Shown here one piece after another: positions 6,012 through 63,499 of a stretch of DNA of 64,000 bases. Both the position numbers and the translations under genes were made by a program. The stretch comes from Shigella phage vb_GEC_SH_GT. Under the pieces are notes generated by a model. The model was given only the letters and a program-made list of their open reading frames with translations, searched no databases and was not told the origin of the DNA. The stretch is from the sequence record OR887633; one strand, 5' to 3'. Positions within the stretch are counted from its first letter, which is position 1; every line of letters begins with the position of its first letter.

Positions 6012-6494
6012 CTAGCGATAAAAACCAAATTGACGATTAGCTTCAATAATCTTTCTTTCTTCTTCGGACATTCTCCAGCGTAGTCCAACATCAAAATGAG
6101 CCCAGACCATCTTAATGAATGCATTTATATCTTTAATATCTTCAATAATGAATGTTTTACTTTTAGAAGGTTGACCTGCTAAATTAAGTGCTAATTTAAC
6201 TTTATCGTCTTCAAACAGGTCAAAAAGACCATATTCATGAGCTCTTTTATAGCCTTTAATAGTTAAAGCTTCAGAAGAAGAAAATGGTGAATCAGTATTC
6301 TGCAAAATATCTTCAGTATGCTTTATAATTAGAATAACATTTTCTGGATATTTTCTTTCTTTTATATCTTTAATTAAAAGATTCGGATTTTCTGCTAAAG
6401 GAATAATTAATGAGCACTTTTTGTCAAGCGTATTTACTGATTTACCTTCTTTAGACATAAATTCTATTGAATATAGTTTTGCTACTTCAATCAT
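6012..6494 (-). CDS. hypothetical protein (160 aa)
   Basis: ORF with SD GGAAA before ATG; modB-soc interval (mrh/srh region of T4). Confidence 0.5.
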
Positions 6495-58518: not shown

Positions 58519-58522
<4 letters not shown>

Positions 58523-59007
58523 TTTAATTTCCTGCATTCAGTGATAAAGCTATTTAAATTTTGAGCATATTTCTTTTCATCATAAATCTTTTGCTGTCTG
58601 CGTAAACGCCATGGCATTTCAATGAACACGCACCATATTCCTGATAGTACTGCTGCTGTAAAAATATTAACAAGTATAATTAAAAGAATCCAATCTTCCG
58701 TTCTGCCTACTGGACTTTCTCCAAAGAAGCAAAATACAAATGATGTCACAGGAAAACTAATAATATACCACAGAATAACCTTCTTATCTGTGAACCAATC
58801 AGCGTTCGTTAACTTAGCACGACCATTTTGAATACACACGAATTTATCATCTGTTACAGTAGATGGCTTAACTGCTTGATATCCCATTCTAAACTCCCTA
58901 ATCAGCAAATTTTTCATATCTTCGGAACAGCCATTCCAGTCAACTCTATCAACTGAAATGCCATCATCCCCATCATCTAAATCATACCAGCGAGTTTTTA
59001 AAATCAT
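58519..59007 (-). CDS. 2-TM membrane protein, ECR-tail family member 1
   Basis: 162 aa; two TM helices then cytoplasmic tail ending NSFITECRKLK. Confidence 0.5.
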
Positions 59008-59378
59008 TTGATTTTCCTACAATCATTCACGAATTCTTTCATTGATTCATTTTCAATATAAGACATGTAGTTATTATATTCTTTTAATTGTATTTTGTAA
59101 TCCTTTTTTCTTTGCCAATTTATTTTAAAATTATCATAATGAAAATATAAAATAATACCAAAGAATGAAAATAATGAAATCGCTATAGTATAATGAAGTT
59201 CACTCCAAACTTCTATTATATCTACTATACCGCTGACATTACTGCGGATGTTTAAAATAATACAGTCAATCATTAATCCAATAAGACTACCCGCAAGAGC
59301 TGCAGCCAACGCCACAGCAAAAATTAAAAATGACTCAGAAAACGAATATTTGACTTTATTTAGTTTTGGCTTTTGCAT
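59004..59378 (-). CDS. 2-TM membrane protein, ECR-tail family member 2
   Basis: 124 aa; two TM helices; tail ending KEFVNDCRKIK. Confidence 0.5.
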   Translation of the reverse strand: MQKPKLNKVKYSFSESFLIFAVALAAALAGSLIGLMIDCIILNIRSNVSGIVDIIEVWSELHYTIAISLFSFFGIILYFHYDNFKINWQRKKDYKIQLKEYNNYMSYIENESMKEFVNDCRKIK

Positions 59379-59773
59379 CGTGATTCCTTAACAAATTTCA
59401 TAATTTCATCAAATTCATACGCGGCAAGTTTAAGCTGATGTTCCTTTTTAATCTTTTTACACTGTGCTTTCCAATCACGTACACGTTTACGATAATGTCT
59501 TCCTTGATACCAATATCCTATCCAATTTACAGGTACTAATAAAAGTGGAACTATTAATGGAAGAATTAGCATTAACACAAGTATTTCGCCAGAATCAATA
59601 TCAGTCATAACATCTAAAACACCTCCAATAATCAATAGAATTACAAATGATATGAGTATAACAGGACCTATTAACACATCAGTAGAAATTATCTGGCGCT
59701 TTAATTCATACTTTAAGGGTTTACTTGGAAGATACATTGATGGCTTTGACATATTCTCTACATTCCTTAACAA
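59360..59773 (-). CDS. 2-TM membrane protein, ECR-tail family member 3
   Basis: 137 aa; two TM helices; tail ending MKFVKESRCKSQN. Confidence 0.5.
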   Translation of the reverse strand: MLRNVENMSKPSMYLPSKPLKYELKRQIISTDVLIGPVILISFVILLIIGGVLDVMTDIDSGEILVLMLILPLIVPLLLVPVNWIGYWYQGRHYRKRVRDWKAQCKKIKKEHQLKLAAYEFDEIMKFVKESRCKSQN

Positions 59774-60329
59774 ATTTTTCTAGTAATAAATCGCTTTCAA
59801 AACTAGGATTTTCCACGAATTTATCAAAAAGATCATCAACAATAGTTAAGACATTCTTTTTACTAAGAATACGTTTATTTTCATGCTTCGTTTCAGAATC
59901 AACTATAAGAGTAAAGAAATATTTCTTTCCCTGAAATTTTACTGTAGTATCAATATAGAATAAATTTGACTTTTGTAAGTTACGTTTAAACCATGCGTCA
60001 CTTAAACTATAAACACCGAGATAATCAAAATCGTCGTTTAAATAACAAACTGTCCATTCAGGAGAAATGAAATCAGTAAATTCAACATCAAAATCGCATG
60101 TCAATGAATAAATTGATTCAATACTGTTAATAAGTATTCCAGGACGTATTAAAGACTTTTTACCTCTGGAAAATCTTCCAGAAAGACTTTCATCAGTTTC
60201 ATATGAAGAACCCCAATAATAATTACGTCCTTCTGCCAGGCGTTTAAGAGCATTTAGTAATTGGTCTGGAACATCAACCTGTCTTTGGAACTCTTCAAAC
60301 ATTGAATTGAAATCACTTTGCATTTTCAT
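59721..60329 (-). CDS. soluble protein, ECR-tail family member 4
   Basis: 202 aa, no TM; C-terminus LEKFVKECREYVKAI shares the tail motif. Confidence 0.5.
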   Translation of the reverse strand: MKMQSDFNSMFEEFQRQVDVPDQLLNALKRLAEGRNYYWGSSYETDESLSGRFSRGKKSLIRPGILINSIESIYSLTCDFDVEFTDFISPEWTVCYLNDDFDYLGVYSLSDAWFKRNLQKSNLFYIDTTVKFQGKKYFFTLIVDSETKHENKRILSKKNVLTIVDDLFDKFVENPSFESDLLLEKFVKECREYVKAINVSSK

Positions 60330-60350
60330 TCCTATTTACTCCAAGTAATA

Positions 60351-60364
60351 GGGGCCGAAGCCCC
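60351..60364 (-). terminator. UUCG-loop hairpin
   Basis: GGGGC-UUCG-GCCCC. Confidence 0.4.
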
Positions 60365-60370
60365 TTATCA

Positions 60371-60964
60371 TTATTTCAGAGAATTAATATATTCCTGAAC
60401 ATCGGCAGAGGTAGTTTCAACCCCAGAAATATTACCATTAAAGGTTTCAACTCGAGCAAGAGTATCTTCAATATCAACCTTAGTCAGCGCTGCAATTTCA
60501 ACTACATCATCAGCAGTACTAATTCCAAGTGCATTCGCTGCACGAGTTTCACGGATATATTCCAATTTAACTGCAAGTTCTTGGCGAGCATCATCTAACT
60601 CAACTACTTTCTTGGCGATTTCAATTCGCATTTCAGCATAACCATCAGCTTTAGTAGTCAGCTGTTCAGCTGTTCGACGATATAGCAAACCGAGTTTAGC
60701 ATGCATTGTTACATCTTGACCTTCGGAAAGAAGCTTGCGAATTTCACGCTCTTTTGATTCAGCCTGTTTATTCTTTTCAACGATAAGTTCACGAATACGT
60801 TTTTCTTCATTAATAGATTTAACAGAAGCAGTTTTTAGATCTTTAATTTTATCAAGCAGTTTTGCTGCTGCGGCAGTATACTGTTCTTCAACAGATAGAT
60901 TTTTAGCCATAGCAGAACCAAGTTTAGTGCGAATAAACTCAACAATTTTCTTCAGTGTGTTCAT
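60371..60964 (-). CDS. coiled-coil protein (possible PspA/ESCRT-III-like)
   Basis: 197 aa almost entirely helical with heptad patterning and amphipathic N-terminus; family call is tentative. Confidence 0.45.
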
Positions 60965-61009
60965 AGTATTTCCTTAGGTTAATTAAGATTTAAAATCCAT
61001 GAGAGTATT

Positions 61010-61183
61010 ATACTCCGGATAGTTTGTAAACTATTTCAACATCGCCTTTTGCTGCTTTATAACCTTCAGCCCAAGATACAACCGAGTTTTTATCTGAAGA
61101 TTCAAATTCTGGCATTGGGCTTTCGCCAATGTTCACGCAGTATGTTTCTTCATTTTCGTCGAACCAAATAATTAAAGTAGTCA
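61010..61183 (-). CDS. small hypothetical protein (57 aa)
   Basis: Hand-translated MTTLIIWFDENEETYCVNIGESP...; below track cutoff. Confidence 0.3.
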
Positions 61184-61252
61184 TTTATTTCTCCGTTTCT
61201 GTATTTGTTTTGATAAGTCTATAATAACACCGTCCTTGGTGTTTGTACACAA

Positions 61253-62065: not shown

Positions 62066-62142
62066 CTGGTCGAGGCAGTAGGGATCGAACCTACGACCCA
62101 GGACTTAGAAGGTCCTTGCTCTTCCTTCTGAGCTATGCCTCG
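62066..62142 (-). tRNA. tRNA-Arg (anticodon UCU)
   Basis: Hand-folded cloverleaf; T-arm GGUUCGAUCC; anticodon loop CUUCUAA; CCA encoded. Confidence 0.85.
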
Positions 62143-62146
62143 TATT

Positions 62147-62221
62147 TGGCGGACGTGATAGGATTCGAACCTATAACCAATCGCTTAACAGGCGATCGCT
62201 CTGCCATTGAGCTACACATCC
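62147..62221 (-). tRNA. tRNA-Asn (anticodon GUU)
   Basis: Hand-folded; acceptor GGAUGUG/CACGUCC; anticodon loop CUGUUAA; CCA encoded. Confidence 0.75.
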
Positions 62222-62225
62222 AAAT

Positions 62226-62312
62226 TGGTGGGGAGTGATGGAGTCGAACCACCCGAGTCGCAATGACAATGGATTTACAGTCCACACCGCTACCTCTACG
62301 GGATAACTCCCC
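62226..62312 (-). tRNA. tRNA-Tyr (anticodon GUA), long variable arm
   Basis: Hand-folded; anticodon loop CUGUAAA; 14-nt variable arm; CCA encoded. Confidence 0.7.
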
Positions 62313-62321
62313 AAATTAATT

Positions 62322-62396
62322 TGGTGGCCCTGGGTGGAATTGAACCACCATCTGGCGATTATGAGTCGCTTGCTTGAACCTTCCAGCTACAGGGCC
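62322..62396 (-). tRNA. tRNA with CAU anticodon (Met or lysidine-modified Ile)
   Basis: Hand-folded; anticodon loop CUCAUAA; CCA encoded; corresponds positionally to T4 tRNA-Ile. Confidence 0.75.
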
Positions 62397-62397
62397 T

Positions 62398-62473
62398 TGG
62401 TGCTGATTGACGGAATCGAACCGCCGACGTCCTCATTACAAGTGAGGTGCTCTACCTACTGAGCTAAATCAGC
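62398..62473 (-). tRNA. tRNA-Thr (anticodon UGU)
   Basis: Hand-folded; anticodon loop CUUGUAA; CCA encoded. Confidence 0.85.
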
Positions 62474-62478
62474 AAAAC

Positions 62479-62568
62479 TGGCGGAGGCGATAGGATTTGA
62501 ACCTATGAGTCGCCGGAGCGACTGCCGATTTTCAAGACCGGTGCATTAAACCACTCTGCCACGCCTCC
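62479..62568 (-). tRNA. tRNA-Ser (anticodon UGA), long variable arm
   Basis: Hand-folded; anticodon loop CUUGAAA; 18-nt variable arm; CCA encoded. Confidence 0.8.
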
Positions 62569-62570
62569 AG

Positions 62571-62644
62571 TCTCCGCGGCAGGATTTGAACCTGCGACAT
62601 TCTGCTCCCAAAGCAGACGCTCTACCAAACTGAGCTACACGGAG
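62571..62644 (-). tRNA. tRNA-Pro (anticodon UGG), CCA not encoded
   Basis: Hand-folded; anticodon loop UUUGGGA; ends at discriminator. Confidence 0.8.
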
Positions 62645-62654
62645 TAAATTAAAT

Positions 62655-62728
<74 letters not shown>

Positions 62729-62733
62729 AAATT

Positions 62734-62820
62734 TGGTGCGAGAAGTGGGACTCGAACCCACAAGGAAATCATTCCGCAGCATTTTAAGTGCTGTGCCTTT
62801 ACCAATTTGACCATTCTCGC
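62734..62820 (-). tRNA. tRNA-Leu (anticodon UAA), long variable arm
   Basis: Hand-folded; anticodon loop CUUAAAA; CCA encoded. Confidence 0.8.
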
Positions 62821-62826
62821 GCTATA

Positions 62827-63435
62827 TTATTTATTACGTGAAAAAGACTGTTCTATCAATTCTGGACACTTTCGTTCTATCCATTTTCTAGCTTTTTGTG
62901 GGCTTATACCTATTATTTTAGCAGCTTTACTAACCCATCCAAATTTAGAATAATCGATTTTAACTAATTCTTCGTAAATTTCATCAGTTAAAATCTTTTC
63001 ATTAATATTTACCAGTAAATGATATAATTTATTATCATTAGCAATTTTAATGAATCTTTTATAGTTTCCGCCTTTACTTAAACCTAATGAAGTAATTGCA
63101 GATGATATAGTAGCTGAATTTAATAGTGCGTTTAAAATTTCTTCATCACTAACATTATAACGCTTTTTATTATTTTTAATATTTTTACCAGCAAAAGTAT
63201 CAGTTTGCGAATGGCAATTTGGACATAATAATCTTAAATTTGATTTAAGATGATTTTTATTATTTCCATCAATGTGGTCTAATTGCAGAACAATATGCTT
63301 ATTTTGCCATTTTGAAATTTTACAAATTGCACACTCATATGGAAAAATATTTTCTTTTATTATTTTGTCTTTCAGCTTTCCTGTACTAAAATTTGGATGT
63401 TTTCCTTCAAAAATTTCAGCTAATTTAGTATCCAT
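62827..63435 (-). CDS. free-standing HNH homing endonuclease abutting the tRNA array
   Basis: Start trimmed to MDTKLAEI; HNH-Zn motif CAICK...LQLDHIDGNNKNH...LLCPNCH; stop 6 nt from tRNA-Leu. Confidence 0.75.
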   Translation of the reverse strand: MDTKLAEIFEGKHPNFSTGKLKDKIIKENIFPYECAICKISKWQNKHIVLQLDHIDGNNKNHLKSNLRLLCPNCHSQTDTFAGKNIKNNKKRYNVSDEEILNALLNSATISSAITSLGLSKGGNYKRFIKIANDNKLYHLLVNINEKILTDEIYEELVKIDYSKFGWVSKAAKIIGISPQKARKWIERKCPELIEQSFSRNK

Positions 63436-63499
63436 AATATAATTCCCAATTATTAACAAAGGCTCTCAAACAAGAACCCTTGATGATAGAGGGTATTAA

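Follow-up and report, generated by a model that had tools for sequence, protein, structure and literature searches.

The gene e.6 of Shigella phage vb_GEC_SH_GT (sequence record OR887633) appears, from profile comparisons and structure models that support the assignment, to encode a phage version of the PspA/Vipp1 (IM30) proteins, a branch of the ESCRT-III superfamily, that has diverged strongly. The gene lies at 60371..60964 on the minus strand of the 64,000-nucleotide (nt) stretch of DNA that we analyzed (the window), which is 95-97% identical to hundreds of Tequatrovirus (T4-like) genomes. Its product of 197 amino acids (aa), followed by a stop codon, is 100% identical to e.6 of phage T4, which was named msp3 in the original T4 submission (L13089.1). 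In PHROGs the sole match of the protein was phrog_1203, annotated as 'unknown function' (E = 8e-88). We annotate e.6 as PspA/IM30-like from the open reading frame (ORF) list, the identity to T4, the phrog_1203 match and the profile, transitive Pfam, hhalign and Foldseek links described below. As to function, we lean towards a joint explanation in which e.6, as a diverged PspA/Vipp1 member, would seal the inner membrane early in infection, with the genes that follow it and share a C-terminal tail as its best candidate partners. The original prediction, made from the sequence alone, had proposed a PspA/ESCRT-III-like protein; this assignment stands because profile matches exist and the predicted structure is a hairpin.

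Homology to bona fide PspA/Vipp1 was found at the level of profiles. A T4-proximal profile (A1), with members at least 48% identical, aligned with Vipp1 in the PDB in perfect register and at non-significant scores (E 1-2.4). An exhaustive profile search of 1.84 billion representatives gave just 45 e.6 relatives, the full-length ones of about 200 aa, and the family is therefore narrow; the contigs of the distant relatives, where inspected, are those of T4-like phages (UvsX, gp41-type helicase, ligase, NrdD). Addition of distant members from this search produced an alignment of 43 sequences with identity down to 18% (A2), the profile of which matched Synechocystis Vipp1 with E values of 7e-5 (8qfv), 1.7e-4, 2.2e-4 and 3.8e-4 and Nostoc Vipp1 with 2e-3. 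The significant match came with A2 and not with A1, so the distant members were needed. Positions 1-146 of A2 pair with Vipp1 residues 1-147 in every Vipp1 match, and eight of the nine best PDB matches are Vipp1/PspA.

A second, transitive link leads to the Pfam family. When the 43 members of A2 were scanned singly, five matched Pfam PspA_IM30. Two of these, P0187 (39.0 bits) and P0186 (35.1 bits), lie above the PF04012 gathering score of 33.9, with residues 6-146 paired to profile positions 2-143. Both are matched over their full length by A1, which includes neither of them (E = 2.4e-20 and 2.7e-21), and through these accepted members e.6 is connected to PF04012. Comparison of A2 with an alignment of PspA plus Vipp1 by hhalign gave a probability of 91.4% and E = 9.3e-7 over 170 columns, beginning at Met1 and reaching e.6 residue 176; the segment LARVETF of e.6 is paired there with MARFESF in α4 of PspA. 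The PspA side of this comparison was a low-diversity profile of near-identical enterobacterial sequences with one Vipp1 fragment. Several distant members of the e.6 family have a Pro at the α0/α1 junction ('S-P-E-D'), in the column of the invariant P25 of PspA/Vipp1. Because coiled coils can inflate scores, a reversed-sequence control was run, in which the e.6 profile scored 28.4 bits with forward Vipp1 and no reversed PspA/Vipp1 target was retrieved at E <= 1000.

The predicted structure has the α0 helix and the long α1/α2-3 hairpin of PspA/IM30 proteins. We obtained two AlphaFold2 (AF2) models, model 1 from a 34-sequence alignment (predicted local distance difference test, pLDDT, 74) and model 2 from the 43-sequence alignment (pLDDT 81, predicted template modeling score 0.65), and both have helices at residues 2-22, 25-80, 86-145, 151-160, 166-175 and 186-196. 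These six helices, together with the lack of Pro (Cys and Trp are missing as well), bear out the description of e.6 as an almost entirely helical protein of 197 aa. The heptad periodicity that had been claimed is also there, with a hydrophobic Fourier power of 1.84 at period 3.5 against 0.25 +/- 0.25 for shuffled sequences, 0.15% of which reach that value. Residues 2-22 (60899..60961, minus strand) are predicted to form a putative membrane-binding helix α0, amphipathic and cationic, which corresponds column for column to α0 of PspA/Vipp1; the hydrophobic moment of residues 2-20 is 0.40 (0.44 in E. coli PspA and 0.55 in Vipp1) and the net charge of residues 1-25 is +4.

Residues 25-145 (60530..60892, minus strand) are predicted to fold into the helical hairpin, with α1 at 25-80, the loop at 81-85 and α2-3 at 86-145, as judged from AF2, the conserved columns and the register with the Vipp1 hairpin. 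The blockwise pLDDT of this part is about 76-97, and 88-97 over residues 31-130; a conserved segment at residues 88-97 lies inside the hairpin. The C-terminal part, residues 146-197 (60374..60529, minus strand), is described from AF2 at lower confidence, from conservation and from the hhalign match to residue 176. It has a near-invariant G147 hinge, predicted short helices at 151-160 and 166-175, and a predicted terminal helix at 186-196 with a near-invariant Y192 and an SLK end. The blockwise pLDDT of the short helices is about 47-82 and falls below 50 at residues 175-181.

Foldseek searches (3Di+AA) of 350,542 PDB chains with these models placed Vipp1 on top. With model 1 ranks 1-8 were all Vipp1 (E = 3e-3 to 1.5e-2), and with model 2 ranks 1-10 were all Vipp1 (E = 2.4e-4 to 1.8e-2, probability 1.00). 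These were followed by archaeal ESCRT-III CdvB2 filaments, then by CHMP1B (rank 27) and PspA 7abk (rank 43); CdvB2 and CHMP1B are weak matches (E 0.03-0.3). Hairpin geometry is common to many coiled coils, and the assignment of the fold therefore rests on the sequence-aware methods.

Several observations weigh against a PspA/Vipp1 assignment. The e.6 sequence taken singly had no PspA (PF04012) match in Pfam at E <= 1 and no PspA match in NCBIfam or the PDB, and its own score is not above the PF04012 gathering threshold. In the PDB search with A2, E. coli PspA (4whe) aligned in register, but with E = 2.5, and prefoldin, an unrelated coiled coil, scored E = 9e-4 over 71 residues, so that the noise floor of that search is close. 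Enterobacterial PspA sequences received 4-16 bits with the e.6 profile, which overlaps the reversed controls (in the reverse-direction test these reached 13.5 bits); at the level of sequence, e.6 is therefore tied to the family by way of Vipp1 and the Pfam model and not directly by E. coli PspA. The α4/α5 region is some 25 residues shorter than that of PspA and is poorly predicted. Of the amphipathic N-terminus that had been described, the moment and the charge stand, but 11% of shuffled sequences equal the moment, which makes it merely suggestive when taken alone. The null results with the single sequence reflect a limit of sensitivity, and for this reason we file e.6 as a divergent member of the superfamily, not as a Pfam-threshold member.

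Could e.6 then be a generic coiled coil, a scaffold or an adaptor, whose likeness to PspA/Vipp1 is convergent or compositional? From Met1 onward the alignment stays in register end to end and takes in the α0/α1 junction, where the Pro that is invariant in PspA/Vipp1 is kept in several family members; two members pass the PF04012 threshold and the reversed-sequence controls fail. The ten best Foldseek matches are all Vipp1, and an independent HHpred analysis of the homolog in phage Metamorpho gave 99.9% (PMC7862958). We regard a generic coiled coil as an unlikely explanation, in fact as the least probable of those considered here.

On the minus strand the order of genes is the tRNA cluster, e.8, e.7, e.6, a hairpin, e.5, e.4, e.3, e.2, nudE and the lysozyme gene e. 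The original prediction had put e.6 immediately upstream of three genes for proteins with two transmembrane segments (2-TM) and an ECR tail. This was inexact in one detail, as a 41-nt spacer with a GGGGCTTCGGCCCC hairpin and the soluble e.5 intervene; e.5 bears the same tail (FVKECR), so that e.6 heads four tail-bearing genes, e.5, e.4, e.3 and e.2. The e.5 protein (59721..60329, minus strand; 202 aa) has no TM segment, and its tail is at residues 186-191 (nt 59757-59774). The e.4 gene (59360..59773, minus strand; phrog_2604) encodes a small 2-TM membrane protein with hydropathy segments at 27-45 and 55-73, a basic C-terminal region and the end FVKESRCKSQN. The small 2-TM protein e.3 (59004..59378, minus strand) ends in FVNDCRKIK, and the 162-aa 2-TM protein e.2 (58519..59007, minus strand; phrog_2203 'membrane protein') ends in FITECRKLK. 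A C-terminal F-[IVL]-x-[DE]-[CS]-R was found in the 64-kb window only in e.5 (FVKECREYV...), e.4, e.3 and e.2.

The linkage of e.6 to tail-bearing genes extends well beyond the window. We surveyed 40 viral-contig loci (L018-L057) with e.6 homologs of 49-99% identity; 35 of these have, at most 120 nt 3' of e.6, the start of an ORF whose product bears an F[IVL]xxCR tail. Tail carriers make up 109 of 690 same-strand downstream ORFs, compared with none of 633 upstream and one of 977 on the opposite strand (Fisher p = 2.5e-33), and the motif is absent from the first 50 kb of T4. The first gene 3' of e.6 is always soluble and e.5-like, about 150-290 aa long, and the later tail genes are often small 2-TM proteins; Karamvirus-like loci (L046-L049) have five tail genes in a row. 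The e.6/e.5-like pair is kept in other neighborhoods: Aeromonas phage 65 has it beside gene 31, AhFM11 has it downstream of nrdD, and Pseudotevenvirus, in which the motif reads F-I-H-S-C-K, has it between nrdD and nrdG. F186 and C190 of e.5 are invariant in a nine-sequence alignment that spans Pseudotevenvirus. The consensus of the tail is φ(-3)-[END]-x-F-[IV]-x-x-C-R-[KRG], with a spacing that corresponds to one face of an amphipathic helix. The conserved module of e.6, e.5 and the tail motif seems to be new, since we found no earlier description of it.

Two other readings of the tail were considered and rejected. The tail-coding stretch lies just upstream of the next start or overlaps it, and the K-E codons spell AAGGAA, which might point to a signal in the nucleotides; F, C and R use all of their synonymous codons, with both Arg codon families represented (CGT 33, AGA 30, AGG 18, CGA 10, CGC 9, CGG 2). 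Such free variation of synonymous codons at these invariant residues places the constraint on the protein. A site for the T4 prohead protease (L/I-x-E) does not fit either, as Glu is not among the invariant residues (F, I/V, C and R). The C-terminal regions of e.4, e.3 and e.2 after the second TM segment are basic, and by the positive-inside rule their tails should be cytoplasmic, in the same compartment as e.6.

The soluble partner candidate e.5 had no match in the PDB with its family profile, and relatives of known function were not detected for it. Homologs of e.5 carry the Pfam accession PF26876.1, and e.5 itself was null in a scan of a Pfam set without that family. In T4, e.2 is annotated as 102 aa (L002 5947-6255), and a separate 63-aa ORF (6243-6434) holds the last TM segment and FITECRKLK; the T4 copy thus looks frameshifted or split relative to the intact 162-aa 2-TM e.2 of the window and other relatives. 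In the distant lineage that is PF04012-positive (L003 6650-7210, L012 6661-7666, L014 6690-7223), the gene that follows the e.6 homolog has an N-terminal TM segment. The C-termini in that lineage differ from the motif and recur among themselves (...ESILARARGQE and VVESILANARERR, with VVKAIVHRARLE in the second downstream gene of L012, which has no predicted TM segment), and this recurrent C-terminus may be an analogous tail.

What then might e.6 do? Proteins of the PspA/Vipp1 family bind membranes through α0 and the hairpin, polymerize into carpets, rings and rods, and repair proton leakage. PspA, the 'phage shock protein', is induced by bacteria when the inner membrane is damaged and keeps it sealed. 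By analogy, e.6 would be made soon after infection and, with its hairpin and the cationic amphipathic α0, would attach to the inner membrane from the cytoplasmic side, where it would assemble into the same kinds of polymer (carpets, rings or rods). In this way it could keep the membrane sealed and energized while the σ54/PspF-dependent Psp response of the host is weak or shut off. The leak itself might come from phage injection, superinfection, phage membrane proteins, or host abortive-infection effectors that depolarize the membrane. The proteins e.5, e.4, e.3 and e.2 would be the best candidates for partners, membrane anchors or clients, analogous to PspB/PspC and LiaI. A membrane-protecting function of e.6 is what we infer from its family.

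The notion that a phage would supply a membrane-maintenance factor of its own is suggested by the presence of an early-expressed e.6 in T4 and in over a thousand related phage genomes, and such a factor is plausibly needed where the Psp response is switched off together with the rest of host transcription or where depolarizing abortive-infection systems operate. T4 e.6 (P39224) was classified as early by its RNA and as middle by its protein, which was detected by mass spectrometry, and T4 e.5 and e.4 as early by both (PMC9697503 supplement). The e.6 gene starts with ATG, 7 nt downstream of a Shine-Dalgarno AAGGA (60971-60975), and its upstream control region (60971..61031, minus strand) contains a T4-type early-promoter -35 element, GTTTACA (61025-61031). 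The T4 record L13089.1 annotates -35 and -10 signals 5' of msp3; in the alignment to T4 the -35 is conserved, and the -10 TATTAT of T4 is TACTCT in the window. A simple sigma-70 scan made no call at this site.

The similarity to PspA has been noticed before, and at the level of annotation it was already known from publications of 2021 and 2022 on phrog_1203. Gp163 of Klebsiella phage Metamorpho, a 'homolog of T4 protein e.6', was matched by HHpred to E. coli PspA (4WHE_A) at 99.9% (PMC7862958). PspA homology was reported for Gp_125 of Salmonella Kuttervirus SeF3a, a member of phrog_1203, and the authors proposed that a phage PspA could act against abortive-infection systems that work by dissipating the proton-motive force (PMC9409062). 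Our search of the literature found no experimental work on e.6.

A membrane-sealing role with tail-bearing partners has its own difficulties. In the CRISPRi-ART data knock-down of T4 e.6 was 'Not Fit', that is, without a fitness effect (score 0.30, p 0.195), as were all the knock-downs of e.2 through e.8 (PMC11879866 supplement). Under laboratory conditions e.6 is an accessory gene that the phage can do without. The main texts of the CRISPRi-ART and HIDEN-SEQ studies do not mention e.6, the data being just in the CRISPRi-ART supplement. The tail-partner idea is a possible one that rests on gene adjacency; many of the 40 surveyed loci are from related phages, so that the counts are not independent events, and the tail motif is absent from the most distant lineages (L003, L012, L014, L016).

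It could also be that the e.6 polymer remodels membrane for the use of the phage and does not repair leaks, for instance by shaping, tubulating or budding it, by making sites for the downstream membrane proteins or for head assembly, or by acting in lysis timing or lysis inhibition. The same evidence of homology and fold speaks for such remodeling as for sealing, the closest solved relatives are the membrane-remodeling rings and filaments of Vipp1, and a series of genes for small membrane proteins is closely linked to e.6. No T4 process is known, however, to require an ESCRT-III-like remodeling factor, the knock-down had no laboratory fitness effect, and no Vps4-like AAA ATPase or other disassembly partner was found among the neighbors of e.6. 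The Pfam scan of e.6 also had no Snf7 (PF03357) match, and we do not place the protein in ESCRT-III proper. Remodeling for phage use is, in our estimation, an unlikely role.

A third role would be regulatory. PspA is established both as an effector and as an anti-activator of PspF (summarized in PMC9409062), and e.6 might imitate it, bind PspF or PspB/PspC, and hold the psp regulon off or hijack Psp signaling. In agreement with this, the host psp operon is induced only weakly or partially by T4, unlike by ΦX174 (PMC12795941); the general host shut-off by T4, however, already accounts for the weak induction. The identity between e.6 and E. coli PspA is about 14% and the link to Vipp1 is the stronger one, so a precise mimicry of the PspA surface is poorly supported, and the e.6 family is also present in phages of Aeromonas and other hosts. 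We consider such mimicry quite unlikely.

A related proposal is that e.6 serves as an anti-defense decoy, taking the place of host PspA where a defense system uses that protein as its target or sensor platform, such as one with Cap2 of the cyclic oligonucleotide-based antiphage signaling system (CBASS). Conjugation of a type II CBASS cyclase exclusively to PspA has been reported in uninfected cells (PMC11153139), and accessory early genes of T4 are often anti-defense genes (HIDEN-SEQ preprint). The CBASS link, however, was shown for PspA of Bacillus, a PADLOC scan of e.6 returned nothing useful and that resource has no related model, and the low identity of e.6 to host PspA disfavors its recognition by a PspA-specific enzyme. 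A decoy function seems very improbable to us.

Early sealing of the inner membrane by e.6 is therefore the role that we favor, and a bolder version of it can be formulated. In this version e.6 and the downstream genes would constitute a phage Psp-like membrane module, in which the tail helix φ-x-x-F-[IV]-x-x-C-R docks e.5 and the variable 2-TM proteins onto the e.6 polymer and so keeps the membrane energized against abortive-infection pores. We hold this docking scheme to be doubtful; if true, it would be a new pairing of adaptor and ESCRT-III protein. The e.6/e.5 pair and the tail motif offer an experimental handle on the T4 'e.x' ORFs, to which no function has been assigned in 30 years.

The family of e.6 is still labeled as unknown function or as 'host specificity protein', and a correct annotation is useful in itself. 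The latter is the name given to e.6 homologs in several phage GenBank records and UniRef clusters. None of the searches that we made supports it, and the name looks like an annotation error for a PspA-like protein that was copied from record to record. In RB43 'e.6' (L005 3851-4447) is annotated as 97 aa and the homologous upstream frame is broken by a stop, so that this copy appears truncated or disrupted, unless there is a sequencing error; the copy in GAP161, which is related to RB43, is intact with 198 aa.

Several other features of the locus were recorded. The hairpin in the e.6/e.5 gap, GGGGCUUCGGCCCC with a UUCG loop (60350..60365, minus strand), was picked up by the terminator-like scan and is followed by a weak U tract; it scored as terminator-like in the (+) reading only, the minus-strand tail falling under the T-run rule of the scan. 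It is annotated as a putative stem-loop in the T4 record, and a predicted terminator after e.6 is listed in PMC5931544. The hairpin may be either a partial terminator or an mRNA-stabilizing 3' structure. The e.7 gene of the window (61008-61184) encodes 58 aa (phrog_5461), compared with 111 aa (phrog_7266) in T4. The nine tRNAs of the window (Arg, Asn, Tyr, Met, Thr, Ser, Pro, Gly, Leu) form a tight minus-strand array at 62067-62820 that, relative to the T4 set, has Asn and Tyr and lacks Gln. Directly upstream of this cluster is an ORF of 210 aa (62827-63459) for an HNH-motif endonuclease; in T4 the homing endonuclease SegB is located inside the tRNA region.

Among known systems Metamorpho gp163 and SeF3a Gp_125 (phrog_1203) belong to the same family as e.6 and are orthologs in other phages; the two papers that describe them contain no experiments, family-wide profile evidence or tail-gene linkage. 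To archaeal and eukaryotic ESCRT-III proteins (CdvB2, Snf7, CHMP1B) e.6 has no significant sequence match, and no Vps4/MIT partner or MIM motif was identified. In the LiaH-LiaI system of Bacillus subtilis a PspA homolog is recruited by a small 2-TM anchor, and the e.6 locus similarly has a PspA-family gene beside small 2-TM proteins that are potential anchors. The gene order is opposite, however, and LiaI is not known to have an F-[IV]-x-x-C-R tail; the likeness seen here is one of concept.

E. coli PspA (222 aa) is similar to e.6 in size and appears to share its α0-α5 plan, the C-terminal helices of which are predicted for e.6 at low to moderate confidence, although the identity in hhalign is about 14% and the direct signal is weak. 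The order of the locus recalls pspA-pspB-pspC in that the PspA-like gene comes first and is followed by genes for small inner-membrane proteins. It differs from pspABC in its T4 early promoter, in the lack of PspF/σ54 control and in the soluble e.5 that stands in between, and e.5, e.4, e.3 and e.2 had no PspB or PspC match in Pfam or NCBIfam. With a T4-type early promoter and no PspB/PspC, e.6 is best described as a PspA-family protein in a locus that is not a canonical Psp system. Vipp1/IM30 (Synechocystis sll0617; PDB 7o3w, 8qfv, 6zvr) is the best match of e.6 both in sequence and in Foldseek. Compared with Vipp1, e.6 is phage-encoded and early-expressed with no thylakoid context, is shorter (197 versus 267 aa) and only 14-18% identical, and has no counterpart of the Vipp1-specific C-terminal extension; its α4 is shortened and split. 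The two proteins have in common α0, a 56-residue α1, a hairpin loop near residue 82, a conserved LAReAL-rKK-like start of α2, and a continuous α2/α3.

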